Positions 5,703 through 33,319 are shown, counted from the stretch's first letter. The stretch is DNA of 64,000 nt from Shigella phage ESh28 (ON528738), one strand, 5' to 3'. Program-made: numbers and translations. The notes: generated by a model from the letters alone, not told the origin.

Positions 5703-6248
5703 ATGAGAAAAGCACTACTCGCTGGTCTATTGGCCATTTCAATGATGGCACATAGCTCCGAGCATACTTTCAGTAATGTCCAACTCGATAACATGCGTTA
5801 CGCGTATCAATTCGGGGAACAATTTTCTAAGGATGGAAAATATAAAACACACAAAAATATCCACAAGAGCGGATTAGGTCATATAATGGCTGCTATTTTA
5901 TGGCAAGAAAGCTCTGGCGGAGTTAATTTAAAATCTAAACCAAAGCATCACGCCTACGGAATGTTCCAAAATTATTTGCCTACTATGCGAGCAAGAGTTA
6001 AGGAACTTGGTTATAATATGACCGATGCTGAAATAAAAAGAATGTTGAATAAACGATCCAATTCAGCTTCCTGGGCGTACATTGAACTTTCTTATTGGTT
6101 AAATATACATAAGGGCGATATAAGAAAAGCAATATCCTCTTATAATTCGGGATGGAATGTTAAAGCTGGTTCTAAATATGCTTCTGAAGTCCTAGAAAAG
6201 GCTAATTACCTTAAAAATAATAAACTTTTGGAAATAGTAAATGACTAA
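5703..6248 (+). CDS. secreted lytic transglycosylase-like protein
   Basis: Signal peptide; motifs E-S-S-G ... G-M-F-Q ... S-Y-N-S-G resemble family 1 lytic transglycosylase signatures. Confidence 0.55.
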   Translation: MRKALLAGLLAISMMAHSSEHTFSNVQLDNMRYAYQFGEQFSKDGKYKTHKNIHKSGLGHIMAAILWQESSGGVNLKSKPKHHAYGMFQNYLPTMRARVKELGYNMTDAEIKRMLNKRSNSASWAYIELSYWLNIHKGDIRKAISSYNSGWNVKAGSKYASEVLEKANYLKNNKLLEIVND

Positions 6249-6588
6249 AATTTTAGTTTTATGTATAGGATTAATTTCATTTTCTGCTTCTGCGTCAGCA
6301 GATACATCATATACTGAAATTAGAGAATATGTAAACCGCACTGCGGCAGATTATTGTGGGAAAAATAAAGCATGCCAAGCTGAATTTGCACAGAAATTAA
6401 TATATGCATATAAAGACGGAGAAAGAGATAAATCAAGCAGATACAAAAACGATACATTATTAAAACGATATGCTAAAAAGTGGAATACCTTAGAATGTTC
6501 AGTTGCGGAGGAGAAAGATAAAGCCGCTTGTCATTCAATGGTTGACCGTTTAGTAGATTCTTATAATCGAGGATTGAGTACTAGATGA
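6241..6588 (+). CDS. secreted cysteine-containing protein
   Basis: Signal peptide MTKILVLCIGLISFSASASA; 115 aa. Confidence 0.45.
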   Translation: MTKILVLCIGLISFSASASADTSYTEIREYVNRTAADYCGKNKACQAEFAQKLIYAYKDGERDKSSRYKNDTLLKRYAKKWNTLECSVAEEKDKAACHSMVDRLVDSYNRGLSTR

Positions 6589-7064
6589 TTGTAAAATATA
6601 TCAAGGGCGATATTGTCGCCCTATTTCTTCAAGGTAATATTATTGCGCACGGGTGCAATTGCTTCCACACAATGGGCTCTGGCGTAGCGGGTCAATTAGC
6701 AAGAGCCTATCCCAAAATTTTAGAAATAGATAAAACCACTACCGAGTACGGTTCTCGTGATAAATTAGGCGATATGTCTATTGTTTTTAAACATAGTCCT
6801 ACGGGATTTGGTATATGCTATAACCTGTATACACAATACGAACCGGGTCCTAATCTTGATTATGGTGCTTTAGTAAACTGCATGATAGAATTAAATCTAC
6901 AGGCAGAAACCCTTTTGTTTAAACCAGTAATTTACATTCCACGCATAGGTTGTGGTATTGCTGGCGGTGATTGGGATAAGGTTTCTAAATTAATCGACAT
7001 GTTTACTCCTGATATTGATTTGATAGTGGTGGATTATGAAAGTACATTACCCGCATCCGTTTGA
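6585..7064 (+). CDS. macro domain protein (ADP-ribose binding or hydrolysing)
   Basis: KGDIV...NIIAHGCN...GSGVAGQLA and IPRIGCGIAGGDW match macro-domain nucleotide-binding motifs. Confidence 0.6.
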   Translation: MIVKYIKGDIVALFLQGNIIAHGCNCFHTMGSGVAGQLARAYPKILEIDKTTTEYGSRDKLGDMSIVFKHSPTGFGICYNLYTQYEPGPNLDYGALVNCMIELNLQAETLLFKPVIYIPRIGCGIAGGDWDKVSKLIDMFTPDIDLIVVDYESTLPASV

Positions 7065-7248
7065 TCCTAAAAACAAAGCAGAAATTATTCGTCAATGGGA
7101 ACGCATTTGCCGTACTAAATGTCCAATTAATAGTCCACATGATGTAGATAAAGACTACATTGGAACATTCGTTGAATATACCTTTATTGATAAGAAAGGT
7201 CGTAAACAACATGTAGAAGAATATTGCTTAAAGGTTACATGGTTATGA
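7036..7248 (+). CDS. hypothetical protein
   Basis: Tracked ORF overlapping macro gene end; start uncertain. Confidence 0.3.
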   Translation: MKVHYPHPFDPKNKAEIIRQWERICRTKCPINSPHDVDKDYIGTFVEYTFIDKKGRKQHVEEYCLKVTWL

Positions 7249-8955: not shown

Positions 8956-9338
8956 AATTCAGCGACTTTTCACAAAGTGGAAAACCTTCAAAGGCAGATG
9001 AATACTTAGGTTTATTAATGGCTGCACAAGCTTATTTTCATTCTGCACATTTTGAAACTAAAAGTTATGCTAGACACAAAGCATACGATTTTATTTTCTC
9101 CGAGTTGCCAGATTTGATTGATAAATTTGGTGAGCAATATTTGGGGTATTCTGGTAGAAAATACACGCCTTCAATTCCAGATGCCAGTAAACTTCCTACC
9201 GACACAATTAAAATGATTGATCGCATACTAGACCAATCTAACAGCATTTACAAAGAAATGCCTCCAGCCATCCAAAGCACGATAGATGATATTACTGGAA
9301 TGTTTTACCAGAGTAAGTATCTTCTTTCCCTCGAATAA
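8952..9338 (+). CDS. hypothetical protein
   Basis: ATGA-coupled to rI; followed by terminator. Confidence 0.5.
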
Positions 9339-10782: not shown

Positions 10783-11316
10783 ATGAAACGATTAGTATTA
10801 GAAGTTAGTCCACTTTTTGGTGAATTGGCTATAGAAAAAGTAAATAATATGTATCGTTTGACGCAAGAAGACGATATGATGTATTTTACACCTAGTGAAA
10901 TTATTCATTTAACCCAAATTGAATATCCTTATACTGATAAAATAGTAAGCATCAATGATGAGCACAAAATTCATTTTTATTCTTCATGCCCAGGATTTAA
11001 TATTAAAAGTGAGTCAATGTGTTTATCAGTTATCCATTGGGATAGTTTTATAGCTAAGATTAAATATTTTTATTATTCTAATGAAAGAAAACATAGTTTA
11101 AAATGGCTCAAAAATTGCAATGCTATTATTACTAACGCTTGCAATCAGAATGATGAAACTCTTTTAAATGTATCAAAATGTTATGAAGATGGAGATGTCT
11201 TAACTATTCGTCAAATTGACGATTTTCGATCGCATATTGTCACATTTACCAAAGACGAAGCTATTGCGCTAAAGACTTATCTTGATTCTGTCATTCCAAC
11301 TATGATTTCAAAGTGA
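10783..11316 (+). CDS. hypothetical protein, paralog pair member A
   Basis: C terminus ...KDEAIALKTYLDSVIPTMISK resembles that of the next ORF. Confidence 0.5.
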   Translation: MKRLVLEVSPLFGELAIEKVNNMYRLTQEDDMMYFTPSEIIHLTQIEYPYTDKIVSINDEHKIHFYSSCPGFNIKSESMCLSVIHWDSFIAKIKYFYYSNERKHSLKWLKNCNAIITNACNQNDETLLNVSKCYEDGDVLTIRQIDDFRSHIVTFTKDEAIALKTYLDSVIPTMISK

Positions 11317-11322
11317 GGAAAT

Positions 11323-11844
11323 ATGTTTATTTCAAGTGAAAGTGGTTTAATTCGTGCTGAATTTAAAAATGACATCTTTCTTATTCAAGGAGATGATATT
11401 ATTAAAATGAGTTATGACGAAATCAAGAAAATTTGTCATGCTCTTGAAAGTCATGGAAAAGTGAACGCTGTTATTGATATTGGCGATTTATGGGTGACAC
11501 TTTATGAAGTATCCGAAGGATTTAATATTGAAGATGAAAACAACATCTTAGCTATTGATAAAAGAAGTGATTTGTTTGATGTATTAAAAGTTTATGAACA
11601 GTCAAACGGTGGAAGAAAAGCTGTATTGATTTATCAAAAACCACATTCATGTGGAACTGCTTCAATCATTTCAAATATTGATGATGAAACTGATACTTAT
11701 ATGTGTGTTTTAAAAGCTGGTGGTGACCGTCATCCGGATTTTATTTCTATTCGTCAAAACAATGGAGAAATTTCATTATCAAAATCAGAAGCTGAAGCGA
11801 TGATTAAGTATTTAACAACCGTTACGCCTTCAATGAAAGGATAG
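11323..11844 (+). CDS. hypothetical protein, paralog pair member B
   Basis: C terminus ...KSEAEAMIKYLTTVTPSMKG resembles previous ORF. Confidence 0.5.
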   Translation: MFISSESGLIRAEFKNDIFLIQGDDIIKMSYDEIKKICHALESHGKVNAVIDIGDLWVTLYEVSEGFNIEDENNILAIDKRSDLFDVLKVYEQSNGGRKAVLIYQKPHSCGTASIISNIDDETDTYMCVLKAGGDRHPDFISIRQNNGEISLSKSEAEAMIKYLTTVTPSMKG

Positions 11845-11846
11845 TT

Positions 11847-12308
11847 ATGATTATTAATGAAAACTCTTGGCACTATAAATTATTCAAATTGTTTAACGAT
11901 GAATGGCAACGACCTAAGACACTATGCGCATACTTTTGGTCTATTGTTATCCCTACATTTTTCGTTTCTATTTTTGGGTGTGCTATACTCGTAGGGTTAA
12001 CAATTATTTGTGCAGAAAGCCTACAACGTTGGCTTATTTTCGGTAGTTTATGGACTTTGCTTCCATCAGCATTTATACTTGCGCTTTTGGTTGTTTTACT
12101 TATTATCGGTTCATTTGTTATTCCTGCACAACTGCGTGAAAAATATAAAGATTATAAATGGAAAAAGGACTATGCTTTACACGTAGAAAATATTGATAGA
12201 GCGTATAAAGGTTTACCTCCTATTCAACCCAAGAAATCGATTATCGTCGAATTTTTAAAAGCTCGTAAAGCTAAAGTATGTCCTGTTATTGAATATAAGG
12301 CTGAATGA
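11847..12308 (+). CDS. polytopic membrane protein
   Basis: Several hydrophobic helices; ATGA overlap into next gene. Confidence 0.5.
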   Translation: MIINENSWHYKLFKLFNDEWQRPKTLCAYFWSIVIPTFFVSIFGCAILVGLTIICAESLQRWLIFGSLWTLLPSAFILALLVVLLIIGSFVIPAQLREKYKDYKWKKDYALHVENIDRAYKGLPPIQPKKSIIVEFLKARKAKVCPVIEYKAE

Positions 12309-13318
12309 TGAAAACAGTAATGAAAAGCTATTTTGGTAGTCATCTTTATGGAACTTCTACCCCAGAATCTGATGTAGATTTTAAAGAAATCTTTGTTCCT
12401 CCTGCTCGCGATATTCTTATTGGAAATGTTAAAGAGCACATGAGTAAAAATACCAACAACACATCATCTAAAAACACTAAAGATGATATTGACCACGAAT
12501 TGTATAGTCTTAAGTATTTCTTTAAATTAGCAGCAGATGGTGAAACTGTAGCATTGGATATGCTTCACACTCCACCTGAACTAGTGGTTAAATCTGATTT
12601 GCCTGATGTGTGGAAGTTTATTCAAGACAACCGTTCTCGTTTTTATACGACTAACATGAAATCCTATTTAGGATATGTCCGCAAGCAAGCTTCTAAATAT
12701 GGTGTCAAGGGTTCTCGTTTGGCTGCATTACGCGATGTATTGAAAGTAGTTAATCAAATCCCTGAGCAATGGGTTGATTACCAAGAAGATGGTTCTATTA
12801 AGCAGCGTCGTACTAAAGTTGAAGATATTAAGCATCGTCTTCCAGAAAACGAATTCTGTGAATGGGTGTTCCATAATCATGAGAAAACAGGCCCACAAAC
12901 GTTCTACACTGTGTTGGGTCGTAAATATCAGACAACGCTTTCTCTTATTGAGCTTAAGCAGTCACTGAACAAATTAGATGCTGAATATGGTGAACGTGCT
13001 CGTAAGGCCGAAGCCAATGAAGGTATTGACTGGAAAGCTCTGAGTCATGCTTGCCGTGGTGGACTCCAACTATTGGAAATTTACAAAACTGGTGACTTGG
13101 TTTATCCACTCAAAGATGCTCCTTTTATTCTCGACGTGAAGTTGGGTAAGCATCCATTTAAAACGGTTCAAGAGTTTTTGGAAGATGTGGTCGATCAAGT
13201 AGAAGCAGCATCTACTGAAGCTTCTAAGAACGGTATGCAACAAAAAGTAGACATGAGTTTCTGGGATGACTTCCTTGAGAAGGTCTATCTTGAAAACCAC
13301 CGAAATTATTATAAATGA
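12305..13318 (+). CDS. nucleotidyltransferase-fold protein (Pol-beta superfamily motif)
   Basis: N-terminal G-S-x10-D-V-D signature (YFGSHLYGTSTPESDVDF); 337 aa. Confidence 0.55.
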   Translation: MMKTVMKSYFGSHLYGTSTPESDVDFKEIFVPPARDILIGNVKEHMSKNTNNTSSKNTKDDIDHELYSLKYFFKLAADGETVALDMLHTPPELVVKSDLPDVWKFIQDNRSRFYTTNMKSYLGYVRKQASKYGVKGSRLAALRDVLKVVNQIPEQWVDYQEDGSIKQRRTKVEDIKHRLPENEFCEWVFHNHEKTGPQTFYTVLGRKYQTTLSLIELKQSLNKLDAEYGERARKAEANEGIDWKALSHACRGGLQLLEIYKTGDLVYPLKDAPFILDVKLGKHPFKTVQEFLEDVVDQVEAASTEASKNGMQQKVDMSFWDDFLEKVYLENHRNYYK

Positions 13319-13320
13319 TA

Positions 13321-13345
13321 GGGAGCCTTCGGGCTCCCTTTTTTA
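13321..13345 (+). terminator. rho-independent terminator
   Basis: GGGAGCC-TTCG-GGCTCCC hairpin plus T tract. Confidence 0.7.
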
Positions 13346-13368
13346 TTTCAAAAATTTTTCACAAAGTT

Positions 13369-13398
13369 GTTTACAAGCATAAAGCTTTATGGTACTAT
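13369..13398 (+). promoter_or_regulatory. T4-type early promoter with conserved leader cassette
   Basis: A/T-rich UP, GTTTAC, TATGGTACTATAC, then leader ACAACTATCAACTGATACGGATTTGGAGAATAAAATG. Confidence 0.6.
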
Positions 13399-13432
13399 AC
13401 AACTATCAACTGATACGGATTTGGAGAATAAA

Positions 13433-14401
13433 ATGAAAACTGTAACTATCAATAAGGGTATCTACTTCGGTAAAGAAATCTCTGGAACTTTTGAGCTCTT
13501 AGGCGAATGGTTCCCAGATAATGCTCCGGTAGATGCACAAGGAGATGGTAAAGTTTTTGTTGAAATTGACGGTAAGCGTCGCGGTGTTTGGGTTTACAAA
13601 TCAGACATTTCATATGATGGTGTAAAAGTTGAAGAAGTTAAAGAATCATATGAAGATATGAAAACCCGCATTAATAAAAGATTTAATGTTATGGGAATGA
13701 TGACGAATGGTATTATTAACGGAAACATTCGTTCATTAATTATCTCTGGTGCGGCGGGTATTGGTAAAACGTATTCTTTAGATAAAGCTTTAAATAAAGC
13801 AAATGATATTGGATACATTGAATATAAAAGCATTAACGGTAAAATCTCTGGTATCGGTCTTTATGAACAGCTTTGGAATAATCGTGAAGAGAATTCTGTC
13901 CTTTTGATTGATGATGTGGATGTTTTCTCTGATATGGACATTCTTAATCTTCTAAAAGCTGCTCTGGACACTGGAGAGACCCGTAAAGTCTGCTGGAGCA
14001 CTGCATCTTCTTACTTAGAAGAAAAAGGCATTGAGCGTGAGTTTGAATTTAAAGGAACGATTGTTTTTATCACAAACGTTGACATTGACCGCGAATTAGA
14101 CCGTGGTACTAAACTTGCTCCGCATTTACAAGCATTAGTGTCCCGCTCAGTTTATTTGGATTTGGGTGTTCACACTAATGAAGAAATTATGGTCAGGGTT
14201 GAAGATGTTATTCTTTCAACTGACATGATGCAAAAGCGCGGTCTTTCTGATGAAGAAACTTATAAAGCATTATCATGGATGAAAGTCAATGTTAATCGTT
14301 TACGCAATGTTTCACTGCGTACTGCACTTTATCTTGCTGACTTTATTATGACCGACAAAAATGGTTGGGAAGAAATTGCTGAGGTTACTCTTCTGAAATA
14401 A
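13433..14401 (+). CDS. AAA+ family ATPase
   Basis: Walker A GAAGIGKT and Walker B VLLIDDVD; start ATG is the terminal ATG of the leader cassette. Confidence 0.6.
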   Translation: MKTVTINKGIYFGKEISGTFELLGEWFPDNAPVDAQGDGKVFVEIDGKRRGVWVYKSDISYDGVKVEEVKESYEDMKTRINKRFNVMGMMTNGIINGNIRSLIISGAAGIGKTYSLDKALNKANDIGYIEYKSINGKISGIGLYEQLWNNREENSVLLIDDVDVFSDMDILNLLKAALDTGETRKVCWSTASSYLEEKGIEREFEFKGTIVFITNVDIDRELDRGTKLAPHLQALVSRSVYLDLGVHTNEEIMVRVEDVILSTDMMQKRGLSDEETYKALSWMKVNVNRLRNVSLRTALYLADFIMTDKNGWEEIAEVTLLK

Positions 14402-14807: not shown

Positions 14808-14837
14808 GTTTACAAGACCGTTCCTCTGTGGTACTAT
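14808..14837 (+). promoter_or_regulatory. T4-type early promoter with conserved leader cassette
   Basis: GTTTAC ... TGTGGTACTATACAACTATCAACTACGGAGG. Confidence 0.55.
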
Positions 14838-14865: not shown

Positions 14866-15393
14866 ATGAATGCTAAAGATATTTTCAACTTGGTAAACTA
14901 CAATGATGGTAAATTTAAATCTGAAGCTCAAAGCAAGTTCTTTAATGATGTCTCAATCGGTGGTGAAATCACGGTTGATGGAGGACAAATTTACAAATCC
15001 CGTTGGAATTGGATCGTTATTATCGATGAGATTGGTATTGTAGAAATTTACAAGAATACGAATAAAAATCGTACATTACACTGGTCTCGTGATACTAACG
15101 AACAGTACAAAAAGGATAAAGCATCTAAATTATCTCGTGTAACTCAAGAAGATATTGAGTTCATCAAGAAAGATATTTTGATGTATGATAACTTAATTGC
15201 TGAAGAGCAAGCTGTTATTGATAAATTTGACGAGATTAAAGCTTCTCGTGAAATTCCTGATTTTATGAAAGAATCAGTAAATGAACGATACACTCTCATT
15301 TCAGAGCGTATTGAAACTTACAAAAAGCAAAGAGCTGAACGCCAAAATACTCTTCGGAAGTTTGAAGAACGGTTAAAGACGGTACTCGCATAA
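14866..15393 (+). CDS. hypothetical protein with C-terminal coiled coil (family member 0)
   Basis: C-terminal heptad-like ...ERIETYKKQRAERQNTLRKFEERLKTVLA; ATG after GGAGG. Confidence 0.5.
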   Translation: MNAKDIFNLVNYNDGKFKSEAQSKFFNDVSIGGEITVDGGQIYKSRWNWIVIIDEIGIVEIYKNTNKNRTLHWSRDTNEQYKKDKASKLSRVTQEDIEFIKKDILMYDNLIAEEQAVIDKFDEIKASREIPDFMKESVNERYTLISERIETYKKQRAERQNTLRKFEERLKTVLA

Positions 15394-15448
15394 CCGCTTT
15401 ATACCAAGGATGGTATAATGGTTCTAAGCCCTTTTAATTGAGATTATT

Positions 15449-15811
15449 ATGAAACAGTTGATAATTAAAAGATTGAATTTATTGATATGTTGTTTATGTA
15501 TAGTAATTGCATATGGTTATTACGCAATTAATGATTATATGCATTATAAAGATTATGATGTTACTGTAGTTAATACCATTACAGGAACACAAGGAAAGGG
15601 GTCTAGTTTATCGTTTATTGCCGTATATGAACTCAAAGACGGTTATAGATTTAGCGAATATATTTCGCCAGAGATGTATTCATCAATAGAAAAAGGTGAT
15701 AATATTACTGTAAGTTTACGTCCTTTCGACGTAAAACAGACATTGTTTGATAATATTGTTTGGTTTTTTGGAATGGTATTAGTTCAATCTGTGTGTGTGG
15801 TGCTTATATAG
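15449..15811 (+). CDS. membrane protein
   Basis: N- and C-terminal hydrophobic helices; upstream TATAAT-like box. Confidence 0.45.
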   Translation: MKQLIIKRLNLLICCLCIVIAYGYYAINDYMHYKDYDVTVVNTITGTQGKGSSLSFIAVYELKDGYRFSEYISPEMYSSIEKGDNITVSLRPFDVKQTLFDNIVWFFGMVLVQSVCVVLI

Positions 15812-15865
15812 TCTGTTCCATCTTATTCTGTATATTTAGTAAAATTGAAATTGAGTGAGGAAAAT

Positions 15866-16753
15866 ATGTCAGTAGTAATTAATAATGTCAATGCAGTAAT
15901 TAAATCTTTAGTTAATAAAAAATTGAATGAATGGACTGTACTTCGTCGTGGAGAGCCAGATAAATTTTTTCATAGATTTAACCCAACTTTGGATTTGAAT
16001 GTTATTGATAAAGATGTTCATGCTGAAATTTTAGATAAATTTAAAGTTGATATTGGGTTTGGATTAGATAAACATTTACAACGAACAAACGGGTCTGGAA
16101 TGGGTTTATCTAATCGCATTATGAAAGCCCTTAATAAAATTGGAGCATTGTCTCGTATTAACGCGAGTGAAATCCTTCGCAATTATAATAAAGGATACGA
16201 CCTTTATGGTCGACTAATGCCGAAATTATCATTTGACCAAATGATAGCGGATTTGTGGGAAAATCAACGACGATTATTAGCATTAGGCGCTCGATTAGCT
16301 AAAGGTCTAGATAAACAAATGATTTTTAAGACCAATAATACAGAAGACCTTAAATGCTTTAAATTTAGTATTCGCGGAGATGATTATTACATCAGAGCTC
16401 GCTCTACAGATTATGTTAATATGGGACATCATCTCTGTTTAGCTTTTGAAGTTTTAAAAGAAGCCGGAACATTAGAATATTCGTCTGGTGCAAAATGCCC
16501 GATTGGTTCAAGTTGTATTTTAATTTATCGCCCGGATGAATCCAGTTCATCTAAATTACCTACAAAACCTGTACCAGTTCGTAGTAACGAAAAACATTCT
16601 GAACAAATTGATTATTTTAATAAGCAAATTGAAGAGCTGAATATTTCTATTCAACAGTATGACGATGAAATTTTCAGACTATCTGGATTGAGTAGTAAAG
16701 CTAAATCTGAGCGTGAAAAGTTAATTAAAATTGTTGATTTACTTAAATCTTAA
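15866..16753 (+). CDS. hypothetical protein with C-terminal coiled coil (family member 1)
   Basis: Start at Met 8 of tracked ORF (GAGGAAAATATG); coiled-coil C terminus. Confidence 0.5.
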   Translation: MSVVINNVNAVIKSLVNKKLNEWTVLRRGEPDKFFHRFNPTLDLNVIDKDVHAEILDKFKVDIGFGLDKHLQRTNGSGMGLSNRIMKALNKIGALSRINASEILRNYNKGYDLYGRLMPKLSFDQMIADLWENQRRLLALGARLAKGLDKQMIFKTNNTEDLKCFKFSIRGDDYYIRARSTDYVNMGHHLCLAFEVLKEAGTLEYSSGAKCPIGSSCILIYRPDESSSSKLPTKPVPVRSNEKHSEQIDYFNKQIEELNISIQQYDDEIFRLSGLSSKAKSEREKLIKIVDLLKS

Positions 16754-16761
16754 GGAACACT

Positions 16762-17790
16762 ATGAAAACTCGTTCTCAAATTGAAGATATAGTTCGTAAT
16801 GCCAGCTATACTCGTGATGTTATGACATTTTTGTGCCAAAATAATTTAGACCCTGATAAAGTTAATCGTGATATTCATCACTTTAAGTATACGAATAGCA
16901 GTGAATGGGTGCGTAATTTTAGTAAAGCAGGGTATATTACGCAAATGACTGCTCGTGAACAGCTCACCGATTTCTGTAAAACTATTGATTATAAAAATCC
17001 TTTATTTGTTCAAGGCGTTGGTCAGAGTAAGGTTGATTTATCAACAGGATTTTTTAATCCAAATCATTATCGTCTTGAATGGAGATTTATTGCTCTATTC
17101 CGTAAACAATTAAAGCAAATTTTGTCTACAGCTAGTCGATTAAAAGGTTCTAATATTAACTTAAAGAATCTGAAATTTGATGGTTATACTCTTCAAATGG
17201 AAGTAAGACCATCTAAAGAAAATAATAGAACTGCACGAATTAGCTTTAAACCTAATACAAAAAATTCTCTTTCAATTTGTGAATGTCTTAAATCACAGTT
17301 GACAGAAGCATTTAAGTATATGGATGTTGTTGCTGCTGTTCAATCTAAGATTTTACCTCGTTTTGAACGATTTAAGTTAGATACAACATCATATGAACTT
17401 GATATGATCGTTTCATTTAAATACGATTTTTTGAGAAAGGACGAAGTCCCGCAAGAGAAAAAGCAGGAAGTGCAAGATAACTTAAATTTAAATTTATCCA
17501 ATTACTTATCAAACGATCCTAAATTTTGGATGTATAGCTCAAGCAATATAGATGCATGTAAACTTAATAAAGTGAGTTTTCTTCCTACTGAAAATTCAAA
17601 TTTTAAACCTGTAGAAAAATGGCACGCTGACGCGATTGAGAAGTCTCTTAAGGCAGTAGATGATGAACTCGTTAAAGCGACCAATGAAGTGCTAGAAGCT
17701 GAAAAGGTGTTAGAACAAGCTCAGTCAAGGGTTCAAAATCTGACAAAGCAACGTTCTAAACTGAACAATGCACTAAATGCACTGAACTAG
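16762..17790 (+). CDS. hypothetical protein with C-terminal coiled coil (family member 2)
   Basis: 342 aa; C terminus ...VLEAEKVLEQAQSRVQNLTKQRSKLNNALNALN. Confidence 0.5.
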   Translation: MKTRSQIEDIVRNASYTRDVMTFLCQNNLDPDKVNRDIHHFKYTNSSEWVRNFSKAGYITQMTAREQLTDFCKTIDYKNPLFVQGVGQSKVDLSTGFFNPNHYRLEWRFIALFRKQLKQILSTASRLKGSNINLKNLKFDGYTLQMEVRPSKENNRTARISFKPNTKNSLSICECLKSQLTEAFKYMDVVAAVQSKILPRFERFKLDTTSYELDMIVSFKYDFLRKDEVPQEKKQEVQDNLNLNLSNYLSNDPKFWMYSSSNIDACKLNKVSFLPTENSNFKPVEKWHADAIEKSLKAVDDELVKATNEVLEAEKVLEQAQSRVQNLTKQRSKLNNALNALN

Positions 17791-17819
17791 TTTACTTTGC
17801 CACAAGGATGTGGTATAAT
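17790..17819 (+). promoter_or_regulatory. T4-type early promoter (near-identical copy at 61688)
   Basis: AGTTTACTTTGCCACAAGGATGTGGTATAAT; small hairpin CCACA/TGTGG before -10. Confidence 0.6.
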
Positions 17820-17847
17820 GTTCTTACTTTCTACTGAGGAGATTAAT

Positions 17848-18849
17848 ATGACTCGTAACGAATATATCAAATCATTCAATAGCGTTATTGATGATAAAGC
17901 TATACCGATGTTTGGTCAAAATATCGTTCTTTCTATTATCAATCAATGGCTCAATAGTGTTGATGCAAGTATTGTTTCTTCTACTAAATTTATTCATGAA
18001 ATTCGTAAAATTTCTAGCCGTGTAGATAAAGATCTTATCAAGAAAACCTTTAAAGAGTCTCGTCTTCTTTCATATTTGGTTAATCGGGATATTCTTGGTA
18101 ATTTTGGGAAAGAAATTAAACGAACCAAAGATGTAGTAGGATATAATTGGTTCGGTGATGTTAATTCTTATCATCTTAATAATAAAGAAGACCCTGAGAA
18201 TATTTTTACTCGTCGTTGGATTAGTAATTTCAGACTTTTCAAAGGACAGATTCTAAAATCAGCTTCTAAATTATGTTATGGCGATTATCGTCAAATTCAT
18301 CCTTTGGCTTCTGATATGATTATCGTAAAAGAATATGAGCTTGATGAAAATAAAGTAGCTATTTTTGTGAATTATGGATTTTTTACACCAGAAACTAACC
18401 AAAAGAACATCAATAAATTTTTCTCAATTGCTAGCACTATAACTCGTCAATTAGAGACCGCATTACTTTGTATGGAAACAGTAGAAAATATTCATACATA
18501 TCCTTTTAAGAATATATGCGGTTGGGAAGGATATAAAATTGTAGTTAGTCTTCGTGAAGTGAAATGTACTTATTCACCTACTAGTAAAGAAATTTACCAA
18601 CAAAAATGTGATGAAATTGTGAATACTCCTAAAGAAGAAACTACCCTTGAGGAACTAATGGAATGTCTTGACGATTCACCTGAACCGATAGAAATTCGTC
18701 CAGAAGTTATTGCACTAGAAAAAGCTTATAAAGAAGCTCTAGAAATTTCTAATAAAGCACAGAAAGAATATGAGAAGGCTAAAAGGATTTGGGAAGAATC
18801 TGTTAATCGCCTGGATCGTCTTGAACAAGCTTTACAGTTAATTAAGTAA
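17848..18849 (+). CDS. hypothetical protein with C-terminal coiled coil (family member 3)
   Basis: Start at Met 18 of tracked ORF after GAGGAG SD; coiled-coil C terminus. Confidence 0.5.
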   Translation: MTRNEYIKSFNSVIDDKAIPMFGQNIVLSIINQWLNSVDASIVSSTKFIHEIRKISSRVDKDLIKKTFKESRLLSYLVNRDILGNFGKEIKRTKDVVGYNWFGDVNSYHLNNKEDPENIFTRRWISNFRLFKGQILKSASKLCYGDYRQIHPLASDMIIVKEYELDENKVAIFVNYGFFTPETNQKNINKFFSIASTITRQLETALLCMETVENIHTYPFKNICGWEGYKIVVSLREVKCTYSPTSKEIYQQKCDEIVNTPKEETTLEELMECLDDSPEPIEIRPEVIALEKAYKEALEISNKAQKEYEKAKRIWEESVNRLDRLEQALQLIK

Positions 18850-18901
18850 TTTAAAGCCAAGGATGGCTCGGAGTATAAACCATTAACCAAGTGAGAAGAA
18901 T

Positions 18902-19831
18902 ATGAAAACTCGTAAACATTATATTGATTATTTTGACAGTCTTATTACTAAACACCGTAATTATCAGATCGGGCACAGAGCAGTAATCAATAATATTCTT
19001 CGTGATTTCCTTCAATATGTTGGCCAGGAAAATCATATCTGTAAAGATACTCAAAACGCTTATTCTCATTCGTTAGGCAATTTGCTTCAATGGTTTAAAC
19101 GTTCTCGTCTGTTATCTTCTACTGTAGCTAGTGATAACATTAAAAACTTTATGAAGCCGAGCTTCATTAAATCTGAGACATCTATAACCGATTTGGTTGA
19201 ATTTACTATTGTTAACGATGTTAAAAAGACCCATTTGGCTGATTGGTTATCTACCATTCCCGAAACTAAATTTGCTGATAAATTCGCTTGTCAATTCAAT
19301 GACCAAGTGAATATGCTTTTTAAGCATGCTCGTAAACTATTTACCGCGGGCGATGACCGTACAAATACAGTTCATGTTAAGGATTGGGTTATTGCTGATG
19401 AAGTAACACACAAGCCAGGTGGTTCATCAGTATTAATTAATATCCAGGTTCCTTATTATTACTCACGTAATCTCGGCACCATGACAGCTAGAGAAATTAA
19501 TAAGCACAACAAAACTATTCGTTCGTTGTCTTATAAACTCTGCACGATGGTGGAGATGATGGACGTAGTGGAAATGTATGATGAAACCGAAGATAATGGT
19601 TCAATGTTATACAGTTCACGCATTCTAATTAAACTGAAGAACCCTAATACATATAAGACAGTTGTAAAAGAGCCTAAAGTAGAAAAGGTTGATAATCTGA
19701 GTGAAGAACGTGAATATCTCAATGCCCGTTTGACTGAAGTTGAAAAACAAATTGCAGAACACACCAAATTGTTAAAATCTCTTAATGCAAAAGCAAATGG
19801 TTTACGTAATGCTATTGAGGTATTGAAATGA
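18902..19831 (+). CDS. hypothetical protein with C-terminal coiled coil (family member 4)
   Basis: 309 aa; C terminus ...[37 protein letters not shown]. Confidence 0.5.
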   Translation: MKTRKHYIDYFDSLITKHRNYQIGHRAVINNILRDFLQYVGQENHICKDTQNAYSHSLGNLLQWFKRSRLLSSTVASDNIKNFMKPSFIKSETSITDLVEFTIVNDVKKTHLADWLSTIPETKFADKFACQFNDQVNMLFKHARKLFTAGDDRTNTVHVKDWVIADEVTHKPGGSSVLINIQVPYYYSRNLGTMTAREINKHNKTIRSLSYKLCTMVEMMDVVEMYDETEDNGSMLYSSRILIKLKNPNTYKTVVKEPKVEKVDNLSEEREYLNARLTEVEKQIAEHTKLLKSLNAKANGLRNAIEVLK

Positions 19832-31640: not shown

Positions 31641-33319
31641 AAAATTTTAAACTAAACCGAGTTAGGTATCAAAATATAATGTCAGTAGGTGGAAATCCTA
31701 TTGACATTCAATTAGATAAGGTTCAAAAAACTCTTATTACTGGACGAAATGGCGGTGGTAAGTCTACTATGTTAGAAGCCATCACATTTGGGCTTTTTGG
31801 CAAGCCATTTCGTGATGTAAAGAAAGGTCAATTAATAAACAGCACAAATAAGAAAGAACTTTTAGTTGAACTGTGGATGGAATATGATGAGAAAAAGTAC
31901 TACATCAAAAGAGGACAAAAACCAAACGTTTTCGAAATCACCGTTAACGGTACACGTCTTAATGAATCTGCCAGCAGTAAAGATTTCCAAGCAGAATTTG
32001 AACAGCTTATCGGAATGTCATATGCCAGTTTCAAGCAGATTGTTGTCCTTGGTACAGCAGGGTATACCCCTTTCATGGGTTTGTCGACCCCTGCACGAAG
32101 AAAGCTTGTGGAAGACCTGCTTGAGGTAGGAACATTAGCTGAAATGGATAAGCTTAATAAAGCACTAATACGTGAATTAAATTCACAAAACCAAGTGCTT
32201 GATGTTAAAAAAGATAGTATTATCCAACAAATTAAAATATATAATGATAACGTTGAACGCCAGAAAAAATTAACGGGTGACAATCTTACTCGTCTGCAAA
32301 ATATGTATGATGATTTGGCAAAAGAAGCTAGAACGCTAAAATCGGAAATAGAAGAAGCTAATGAAAGATTAGTTAATATTGTTTTAGACGAAGACCCGAC
32401 TGATGCATTTAATAAAATCGGTCAAGAAGCAGTTTTAATTAAATCAAAAATTGACTCGTACAATAAAGTCATTAATATGTATCACGAAGGTGGATTATGT
32501 CCAACCTGTTTGTCACAATTAAGTTCCGGTGATAAAGTTGTTTCTAAAATTAAAGATAAAGTTTCTGAATGTACGCATTCGTTTGAACAGCTTTCAACAC
32601 ACCGTGATAATTTAAAAGTTCTTGTTGATGAATACCGAGATAATATTAAAACTCAGCAGTCGTTGGCAAATGATATTCGCAATAAAAAGCAATCTCTAAT
32701 CACGACGGTAGATAAAGCTAAAAAAGTTAAAGCAGCTATAGAAAAAGCATCTTCTGAGTTTATTGACCATGCTGATGAAATAGCACTGCTTCAAGAAGAA
32801 CTTGATAAAATTGTTAAGACAAAAACTAATTTAGTAATGGAAAAATACCACCGAGGAATTTTGACTGATATGCTCAAAGATTCTGGTATTAAAGGTGCTA
32901 TTATTAAAAAGTACATTCCATTATTCAATAAGCAGATTAACCATTATCTTAAAATAATGGAAGCGGATTATGTGTTTACATTAGATGAAGAATTTAATGA
33001 GACAATTAAATCCCGTGGTCGTGAAGATTTTAGTTATGCTTCATTTAGTGAAGGTGAAAAGGCACGAATCGATATTGCTCTTTTATTTACTTGGCGTGAT
33101 ATTGCTTCTATCGTATCTGGTGTTAGTATTAGTACATTAATACTCGATGAAGTGTTTGATGGGTCATTTGATGCCGAAGGTATTAAAGGTGTAGCTAATA
33201 TTATAAATTCAATGAAAAACACTAATGTCTTTATAATTTCGCATAAAGACCATGACCCGCAAGAATATGGTCAGCATCTTCAAATGAAGAAAGTTGGTCG
33301 ATTTACTGCAATGGTTTAA
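31637..33319 (+). CDS. 46: recombination ATPase gp46 (Rad50/SbcC-like)
   Basis: 560 aa; Walker A GRNGGGKST, coiled-coil with CPTC zinc hook, signature FSEGE and Walker B LILDE. Confidence 0.9.
   Translation: MKNFKLNRVRYQNIMSVGGNPIDIQLDKVQKTLITGRNGGGKSTMLEAITFGLFGKPFRDVKKGQLINSTNKKELLVELWMEYDEKKYYIKRGQKPNVFEITVNGTRLNESASSKDFQAEFEQLIGMSYASFKQIVVLGTAGYTPFMGLSTPARRKLVEDLLEVGTLAEMDKLNKALIRELNSQNQVLDVKKDSIIQQIKIYNDNVERQKKLTGDNLTRLQNMYDDLAKEARTLKSEIEEANERLVNIVLDEDPTDAFNKIGQEAVLIKSKIDSYNKVINMYHEGGLCPTCLSQLSSGDKVVSKIKDKVSECTHSFEQLSTHRDNLKVLVDEYRDNIKTQQSLANDIRNKKQSLITTVDKAKKVKAAIEKASSEFIDHADEIALLQEELDKIVKTKTNLVMEKYHRGILTDMLKDSGIKGAIIKKYIPLFNKQINHYLKIMEADYVFTLDEEFNETIKSRGREDFSYASFSEGEKARIDIALLFTWRDIASIVSGVSISTLILDEVFDGSFDAEGIKGVANIINSMKNTNVFIISHKDHDPQEYGQHLQMKKVGRFTAMV

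Follow-up and report, generated by a model that had tools for sequence, protein, structure and literature searches.

Positions 14866 to 19831 of a 64,000-nucleotide stretch of Shigella phage ESh28 DNA (ON528738; the whole stretch is referred to as the window) carry, on the plus strand, five open reading frames (ORFs) that by position and identity are assigned as the orthologues of T4 nrdC.8, nrdC.6, nrdC.5, nrdC.4 and nrdC.3, and whose products all end in a heptad-patterned segment. Four of them, nrdC.3 to nrdC.6, are very probably paralogues along their whole length, since nrdC.3 and nrdC.4 share a PHROG family, the models of nrdC.5 and nrdC.6 share the order of their structural elements, and the profile alignments between the families are collinear. 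This points to tandem whole-gene duplication followed by divergence as the origin of the four genes, not to a shared tail placed on unrelated effectors. The best reading of these paralogues, which we regard as reasonably probable, is that they form an early, oligomeric and tandem-duplicated counter-defence family whose members bind host immune proteins.

The 6.3 kb around the array are 96-97% identical to many Tequatrovirus genomes, the window as a whole is ~97% identical, and the DNA is accordingly classed by its sequence as that of a Tequatrovirus, a T4-like phage. The gene order matches T4 from nrdC.11 to nrdC, with the plus strand of the window corresponding to the minus strand of T4. The five ORFs lie exactly where an earlier note, made from the sequence without database searches, had placed them, each with an ATG, a stop codon and an upstream Shine-Dalgarno-like sequence. 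The genes of the array are as follows, nrdC.7 lying between nrdC.8 and nrdC.6, outside the paralogue family, and breaking the contiguity of the array.

14866..15393, plus strand: nrdC.8 orthologue, 175 residues; 98% identity to T4 nrdC.8; phrog_2274 (E = 6e-111)
15449..15811, plus strand: nrdC.7 orthologue, 120 residues; predicted membrane protein; phrog_2547
15866..16753, plus strand: nrdC.6 orthologue, 295 residues; phrog_2257 (E = 1e-152); homologues carry the newer Pfam family PF26899
16762..17790, plus strand: nrdC.5 orthologue, 342 residues; Pfam DUF7235 (PF23882)
17848..18849, plus strand: nrdC.4 orthologue, 333 residues; phrog_1435 (E = 1e-167); newer Pfam family PF26897; 96% identity to T4
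18902..19831, plus strand: nrdC.3 orthologue, 309 residues; phrog_1435 (E = 7e-114); nrdC.4 paralogue and mosaic allele

Relationships among nrdC.3, nrdC.4, nrdC.5 and nrdC.6

Judged by pairwise and profile comparison, nrdC.3 and nrdC.4 are clearly paralogues: both are full-length matches to phrog_1435, BLASTP aligns them at 25% identity over 226 N-terminal residues, and hhalign pairs them with 97.7% probability (E = 2e-12). A hidden Markov model (HMM) of nrdC.5 and nrdC.6 recovers nrdC.4 at E = 4.9e-5 among the 366 ORFs of the window, which is the one new recovery obtained with leave-one-family-out HMMs, the others failing. With deeper alignments, hhalign pairs nrdC.3/4 with nrdC.5 (P = 5e-4, collinear over 262 columns), nrdC.5 with nrdC.6 (P = 1.7e-3, 224 columns) and nrdC.3/4 with nrdC.6 (P = 0.042, 243 columns), likewise collinearly. 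In a multiple alignment, four motifs appear in a common order, namely LS..a..iL.NFgK, GY..yG, a helix ending in A-[SR]-[KR]-L, and M-D-V-V.

Structure models point in the same direction. The AlphaFold2 model of nrdC.6 (predicted local distance difference test score, pLDDT, 78.7) consists of a helical N-domain, a helix (residues 123-144), a hairpin (165-178), a helix (186-199), a hairpin (204-221), a linker and C-terminal helices 242-271 and 277-294. The model of nrdC.5, which is of low confidence (pLDDT 60.7; predicted template modelling score, pTM, 0.47), repeats this order: after the helical N-domain come a long helix and a beta-hairpin, then another helix and hairpin, and lastly a disordered linker and the terminal helix. 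The helices that hhalign pairs between the two proteins are the corresponding helices of the models. A Foldseek search against BFVD returned five neighbours common to both models, each at E ~1e-3 or better, from Mineola, PM2, fHyAci03, Merlin and fHe-Yen9-01; these are uncharacterised proteins of ~310-335 residues from T4-like phages of Klebsiella, Pectobacterium, Acinetobacter, Citrobacter and Yersinia.

Three proteins of other phages bridge the families. CC31p082 occupies the nrdC.3/4 position and yet matches the nrdC.6 HMM at 3e-7, fHe-Yen9-01 gp94 is linked at 1e-3 both to the nrdC.6 HMM and, by BLASTP, to nrdC.3, and gp111 matches the nrdC.5 HMM at 9e-4. Among the complete ORFs of each of the three genomes, these also have the best C-terminal heptad scores. 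In contrast to the impression in the earlier note that the N-terminal regions look unrelated, those of nrdC.3 to nrdC.6 are thus connected by the nrdC.3/nrdC.4 match, the element order of nrdC.5 and nrdC.6 and the collinear profiles. The note's proposal of a common module fused to variable effector domains does not fit these four proteins, whole-gene paralogy taking its place, and nrdC.8 stands apart from them.

The genes themselves are already known and have long been annotated as hypothetical. What appears to be newly joined here is a superfamily with a shared architecture, comprising three Pfam families and several PHROG families. Individual members are held, as families of unknown function, in phrog_1435, phrog_2351, phrog_2257, PF26897 and PF26899 and, for other genera, in phrog_31182, phrog_25705 and phrog_26189; the databases keep these families apart, whereas here they are joined across several Straboviridae genera. 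A full-text literature search for these Pfam and PHROG accessions found no paper, and a search covering nrdC.3, nrdC.4, nrdC.6 and the accessions found nothing functional. Among the matches listed in large protein searches, only close relatives from T-even-type phages occur. Profiles of nrdC.5 and nrdC.6 searched against the Protein Data Bank (PDB) gave coiled-coil noise or nothing, the matches of nrdC.5 being three weak ones to coiled-coil proteins such as keratin, and no family member matched a known anti-defence fold or solved structure.

The C-terminal segments

The C-terminal ends were assessed with an ad hoc heptad score, distinct from COILS or DeepCoil, which rewards hydrophobic residues at positions a and d and polar residues elsewhere and penalises proline and glycine; the other ORFs of the window (111 on the plus strand) and 300 shuffles of each protein served as controls. 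For the last 40 residues, the top four of the 111 plus-strand ORFs are nrdC.5 (25.5), nrdC.8 (23.8), nrdC.3 (23.6) and nrdC.4 (22.1), all within six consecutive genes, and the fifth-ranked ORF scores 21.0. In nrdC.6, the best heptad window comprises residues 245-272 (22.1), after which come a glycine break and another short helix. The best window of each protein was equalled in just 0-2 of its own 300 shuffles (0 of 300 for nrdC.8). The nrdC.5 model ends in a single 59-residue helix (residues 283-341), and the C-terminal part of the nrdC.6 model is likewise helical. Thus, the heptad-like C-terminal segments reported in the earlier note are present in all five proteins, with scores above those of shuffled controls, and the coiled-coil propensity attributed to them is borne out by the score and, for nrdC.5 and nrdC.6, by the models; the tails are real coiled-coil-like segments. 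Those of the four paralogues are as follows.

16589..16747, plus strand: nrdC.6 C-terminal helical heptad segment, residues 242-294, ending ...EKLIKIVDLLKS
17608..17784, plus strand: nrdC.5 C-terminal 59-residue helix, residues 283-341; top C-terminal heptad score in the window
18697..18846, plus strand: nrdC.4 C-terminal heptad segment, ~residues 284-333, ending ...DRLEQALQLIK
19685..19828, plus strand: nrdC.3 C-terminal heptad segment, ~residues 262-309; 77-100% identical to T4

Likeness between the tails is weak. HMMs of the last 50 residues gave no cross-match between families among all 366 ORFs of the window (E > 0.1), so the tails cannot be called homologous from sequence statistics alone, and pairwise hhalign comparison of the tails returned P = 4.6e-4 to 0.16. 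A terminal motif, L-x-x-[AVI]-[LIV]-x-[LAV]-[LI]-[KN], defined post hoc from the four ends of nrdC.3 to nrdC.6, is found in these four proteins and in no others of the 366 ORFs (0.016 expected); nrdC.8 lacks it. For nrdC.4, nrdC.5 and nrdC.6, the majority of orthologues in other genera retain the motif, with some sublineages having a relaxed form only, and in its strict or relaxed form it ends 68 of the 70 nrdC.5 orthologues examined.

Several related genomes carry altered copies of these genes. The T4 reference (NC_000866) nrdC.6 has a 1-nt deletion relative to the window, where GCTGAATATT becomes GCTG-ATATT (window 16650-16753; 9067-9140 of the T4 locus); the deletion shifts the frame and the coiled-coil tail is lost (275 residues compared with 295), while another frame still encodes the complete tail. 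The difference reflects a mutation in the laboratory strain or, alternatively, an error of sequencing. The RB69 reference nrdC.5 (11071-11973) has an aberrant, non-helical C-terminus, ...WTNCLLNWTRHKLSSVMLKVL, whereas other Mosigvirus-type copies have a normal coiled-coil end, ...SKLFNAMNALKS, and a frameshift in RB69 is likely. In Shigella phage SP18, the nrdC.5-like gene is annotated as two ORFs (5956-6468 and 6483-6860) and looks disrupted.

Divergence and recombination among related phages

The earlier note had also taken the array for a diversifying family, and for the paralogues the comparison between phages agrees with this. Identity between sister genera is 21-28% for nrdC.5, 33-52% for nrdC.6 and 42-51% for nrdC.4, compared with 67-83% for nrdC.8 and 78-84% for nrdC.11. 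The number of paralogues also varies, with four in Tequatrovirus, three in RB69 (without nrdC.4) and three in JS98, VR25 and SP18 (without nrdC.3); in the Slopekvirus phage Matisse, no recognisable member lies in the 13 kb downstream of nrdC.11. Within Tequatrovirus, nrdC.3 is bimodal, with ~360 records at 93-99% and ~100 at ~60% identity to the window allele; nrdC.3 alleles differ greatly between genomes that are otherwise ~96% identical. A related locus of Acinetobacter phages has alleles at either 96-100% or ~35% identity.

Comparison with the nrdC.x ORFs of T4 identified the orthologues listed above, and comparison with T4 and RB69 resolved nrdC.3 into T4-like and RB69-like parts. Overall, the window nrdC.3 is 60% identical to that of T4 and 75% to that of RB69; residues 1-60 are T4-like (90%) and residues 60-150 are RB69-like (93%), and relative to T4 the middle is 37-67% and the tail 77-100% identical. 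By this pattern, nrdC.3 is best described as a recombinant mosaic with a hypervariable middle between conserved ends.

Further rearranged or distant copies were observed. Protein P0056 (299 residues, from a metagenome or assembly) is a natural in-frame fusion of the nrdC.5 middle with the C-terminal half of nrdC.3. It corresponds to a deletion running from the last part of nrdC.5 through the whole of nrdC.4 into the first part of nrdC.3, and the two pieces meet where the genes are briefly alike (FNKV / NMLF). The nrdC.6 copy of Shigella phage Sf25 (P0079, 378 residues) exceeds the usual length by ~80 residues. In Acinetobacter phage Abraxas, a 343-residue ORF (6036-7067) just upstream of a gene for an NrdC-like glutaredoxin has a coiled-coil tail ending in ...LEETIKILSK; it is this ORF whose alleles within Acinetobacter phages stand at 96-100% or ~35% identity.

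Counteraction of Dsr1 by T4 nrdC.5

The suggestion in the earlier note of an anti-defence family is supported for one member, nrdC.5, and makes candidates of the others. After the loss of part of its genome, a T4 clone no longer plates on E. coli ECOR17, and deletion of dsr1 from the host restores plating; plasmid-borne Dsr1 protects MG1655 from this deletion clone, and plasmid-expressed T4 nrdC.5 restores infection by the clone on Dsr1 cells (Srikant et al. 2022, eLife, PMC9391042). The window nrdC.5 is 93.3% identical to that of T4, occupies the same place between nrdC.6 and nrdC.4, and matches PF23882 over its full length (392.6 bits, cut-off 30; E = 1.8e-117; all 307 profile positions, 1-307, covered); the profile has no match in the other four ORFs. 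The differences from the T4 allele lie mostly in the linker region (83% identical). The T4 study describes no paralogues, domain architecture or mechanism for NrdC.5 (PMC9391042). Dsr1 carries a tetratricopeptide repeat (TPR) sensor that, according to a 2026 preprint (PMC12803255), recognises the major capsid proteins of phages.

Two comparisons with known systems can be made. DSAD1, a phage inhibitor of the SIR2 defence protein DSR2, is a possible functional analogue, in that it is reported to neutralise a sirtuin-type NADase triggered by a late structural protein; according to the published papers, DSAD1-DSR2 complexes are deposited in the PDB. DSAD1 has no detectable homology to nrdC.5, since the PDB profile search with nrdC.5 gave just the three weak coiled-coil matches mentioned above, and binding of nrdC.5 to Dsr1 is only putative. 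The accessory counter-defence genes tifA, dmd, adfA and ipIII of T4, described as dispensable determinants of host range, are likewise early and non-essential; they vary among T4-like phages, and on laboratory hosts their loss carries no cost (PMC9391042). These are single small genes, whereas nrdC.3 to nrdC.6 encode four paralogues of 295-342 residues with a common multi-domain architecture.

Promoters and transcription

Promoter-like sequences were found at four places in and upstream of the array.

13370-13398, plus strand: T4-early-type promoter upstream of nrdC.10, nearly the same sequence as that of nrdC.8
14809..14837, plus strand: T4-early-type promoter upstream of nrdC.8 (TTTACA, 17 nt, TACTAT, preceded by TG)
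15396..15419, plus strand: middle-promoter-like sequence upstream of nrdC.7 (GCTTTA MotA-box-like element, then TGGTATAAT)
17791..17819, plus strand: T4-early-type promoter upstream of nrdC.4 (TTTACT, 17 nt, TATAAT, preceded by TG)

The sequences ahead of nrdC.8, nrdC.4 and nrdC.10 follow the pattern GTTTAC, 17 nt, TGGTAnTATA, while that ahead of nrdC.7 combines a MotA-box-like sequence with TATAAT and is provisionally assigned to the middle class. The GenBank record of phage Lutter has promoters annotated at the equivalents of all four places. Consequently, the claim that several of the five ORFs sit behind individual early promoters holds, by sequence match, for two of them, nrdC.8 and nrdC.4. 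Because of these promoter positions, taken from the sequence and the Lutter annotation, the likely transcription units are nrdC.8 alone, nrdC.7-6-5 and nrdC.4-3-2-1-nrdC.

Two side observations concern transcription and translation in this region. Behind nrdC.11 stands a strong intrinsic terminator, GGGAGCC-TTCG-GGCTCCC and then a run of T, with the nrdC.10 early promoter directly after it (13320-13398). At 19828-19831, the sequence ATGA both ends nrdC.3 and starts nrdC.2, an overlap that suggests translational coupling.

Proposed role of the paralogues and alternative explanations

In the scheme that we propose, one ancestral gene would have given rise, through tandem duplication in T-even-type phages, to four diverged copies. 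Each product would begin with a helical domain, followed by a small alpha/beta core made up of a long helix, a beta-hairpin, a second helix and a second beta-hairpin; a disordered linker would then lead to a C-terminal coiled coil ending in a conserved L-x-x-A-L-x-x-L-K-like motif. By their promoter sequences the genes are early, with transcription from the promoters ahead of nrdC.7 and nrdC.4. The coiled coil may assemble the proteins into multivalent oligomers, and the fast-evolving middle may bind and block a host immune protein. For nrdC.5, the genetics of the T4 orthologue point to the SIR2 NADase Dsr1 as the target, direct binding being putative. Since the major capsid protein that Dsr1 senses is made late, a blocker made early would be in place ahead of the trigger, with nrdC.5 occupying or disabling Dsr1 before the capsid protein appears. 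The proteins nrdC.3, nrdC.4 and nrdC.6 would have the same role with different targets. By contrast, nrdC.8 is an unrelated, conserved small protein with a helical, heptad-patterned C-terminal half.

Several points weigh against this scheme. A counter-defence role is known for one member only, by genetics, and in T4 rather than in this phage. Outside the nrdC.3/nrdC.4 pair, comparison of profiles gives modest significance (P = 5e-4 to 0.04), which the shared helical and coiled-coil composition may have inflated, and neither single-family nor tail-only HMMs retrieve another family among the 366 ORFs. The structure models cover nrdC.5 and nrdC.6, were compared by element order, and include the low-confidence model of nrdC.5; the common BFVD neighbours have low TM-scores (0.2-0.5), which flexible multi-domain models would be expected to give, but so would weak matches. 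Lastly, the 1-nt deletion that removes the nrdC.6 tail from the T4 reference implies that the tail, or the whole of nrdC.6, is dispensable in the laboratory.

Of the alternatives, we consider it unlikely that nrdC.3 to nrdC.6 serve in host takeover or as housekeeping accessories, with targets such as the host's transcription, its nucleoid or nucleotide metabolism, and that the anti-Dsr1 effect is indirect or specific to nrdC.5. The evidence on nrdC.5 is a genetic rescue without a mechanism, the genes are set among those of nucleotide metabolism (nrdC, nrdD and tk), and the lack of a match between any family member and a known anti-defence fold or solved structure suits such a role. However, library scans detected no enzymatic or nucleic-acid-binding domain in family members, and the variation in copy number, together with divergence much faster than that of the flanking genes, is typical of genes in conflict with the host; moreover, T4 loses the region harmlessly on laboratory strains, with its host range reduced. 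Another improbable alternative is joint action, in which the similar tails drive hetero-oligomers of nrdC.3 to nrdC.6, perhaps with nrdC.8, into one multi-subunit complex in place of independent factors. The tails differ outside the last nine residues, copy number varies by genus, the tails of T4 nrdC.6 and RB69 nrdC.5 are lost or disrupted, and nrdC.5 from a plasmid suffices to rescue a phage whose deletion includes at least nrdC.5, all of which argue against such a complex, whereas conservation of the terminal motif over four families and the co-location and partial co-transcription of the genes would favour one.

Two further explanations concern the tails themselves. Domain shuffling, by which a common C-terminal oligomerisation or targeting module would have been fused to five unrelated N-terminal effectors, is very improbable in our judgement. 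By eye the tails are the part most evidently alike, but sequence statistics rank them as the least similar part, and the homology of nrdC.3 and nrdC.4 lies in the N-terminal 220 residues and not in the tail. Single-family HMMs and BLASTP leave nrdC.5 and nrdC.6 unconnected to the others, and Pfam and PHROGs hold separate families, as shuffling would predict; against this stand the common element order of nrdC.5 and nrdC.6 along the whole chain, their common structural neighbours, and profile alignments that are collinear across most of the length. The truly unrelated N-terminal part of nrdC.8 and the exchanged middle of nrdC.3 between conserved ends also accord with shuffling. It is harder still to credit that the tails are a compositional by-product of AT-rich phage genes, rich in codons for K, E, N, L and I, and have no common function. 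The heptad score is ad hoc, and ORFs elsewhere in the window also score high, such as the one at 31679-33319 with 25.2, but the observed scores were matched in only 0-2 of 300 shuffles, six consecutive genes hold the four top C-terminal scores among 111 ORFs, the tails stay conserved between genera in which the middles diverge, and AlphaFold2 predicts long uninterrupted helices.

An extension of the counter-defence reading, quite unlikely at present and offered as speculation, is that the coiled coil with its near-invariant L-x-x-A-L-x-x-L-K end serves as a common docking or assembly handle, for mixed oligomers or for one shared host hub, while swappable middles neutralise different sensor-type immune proteins, such as Dsr1 and others equipped with its capsid-sensing TPR sensor. 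Specificities would then pass between phage genera by recombination at the conserved ends, an exchange suggested by the nrdC.3 mosaic.

Already, nrdC.5 is one of few T4 genes with a demonstrated counter-defence role, and if it is one of four paralogues with a common architecture, and if the T4-like phages that infect Klebsiella, Yersinia, Citrobacter, Pectobacterium, Enterobacter and Acinetobacter have related proteins, nrdC.3, nrdC.4 and nrdC.6 become immediate counter-defence candidates. A division of labour is then suggested in which the coiled coil provides assembly and the variable middle the choice of target. Natural allele swaps such as the nrdC.3 mosaics could then be used for mapping specificity. 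Several Pfam and PHROG families of unknown function could also be merged.

The separate family of nrdC.8

As the earlier note had supposed for its N-terminal part, nrdC.8 has no profile similarity to nrdC.3 to nrdC.6: hhalign against these families gave P = 0.05 or worse over at most 20 columns. Given the lack of a profile link, the absent terminal motif and the different PHROG, nrdC.8 is placed outside the superfamily, in a different, highly conserved and non-diversifying family (phrog_2274). The N-terminal part is strand-rich as read from the sequence, and 28-residue windows score at least 16 from ~residue 93 to the end. The family forms 37 representative clusters among 1.84 billion proteins, none with a known function, and all eight of the clusters scanned match phrog_2274. 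At least 99% identity is retained in 314 of 741 phage records, so nrdC.8 is conserved instead of being the diversifying array member for which it had been taken. A 533-residue protein, P0213, carries a distant relative of the nrdC.8 N-terminal domain behind a virion-structural-like region (phrog_13484), followed by a coiled-coil-like end.

Neighbouring genes and annotation

Upstream of the array lie nrdC.11 (an RlaP-type nucleotidyltransferase), nrdC.10 (an AAA-type, AAA/STAND-like ATPase) and nrdC.9, with nrdC.11 and nrdC.10 within 12305-14401; downstream are nrdC.2 (a zinc ribbon protein), nrdC.1 and nrdC. The nucleotide-metabolism genes nrdC, nrdD and tk are nearby. The spread of nrdC.11, found in 1504 phage records across many genera, is much wider than that of the paralogue family. 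That the array is a defence or superinfection-exclusion locus was considered and rejected, with nothing in its favour.

Pfam, NCBIfam and PHROGs offer a functional name for none of the five proteins. In many GenBank phage records, every nrdC.x ORF is labelled 'thioredoxin', and none of these ORFs has a thioredoxin domain; the labels look like an annotation error spread from the gene names. For the same reason of naming, one published paper wrongly handles nrdC.8 as a nucleotide reductase.

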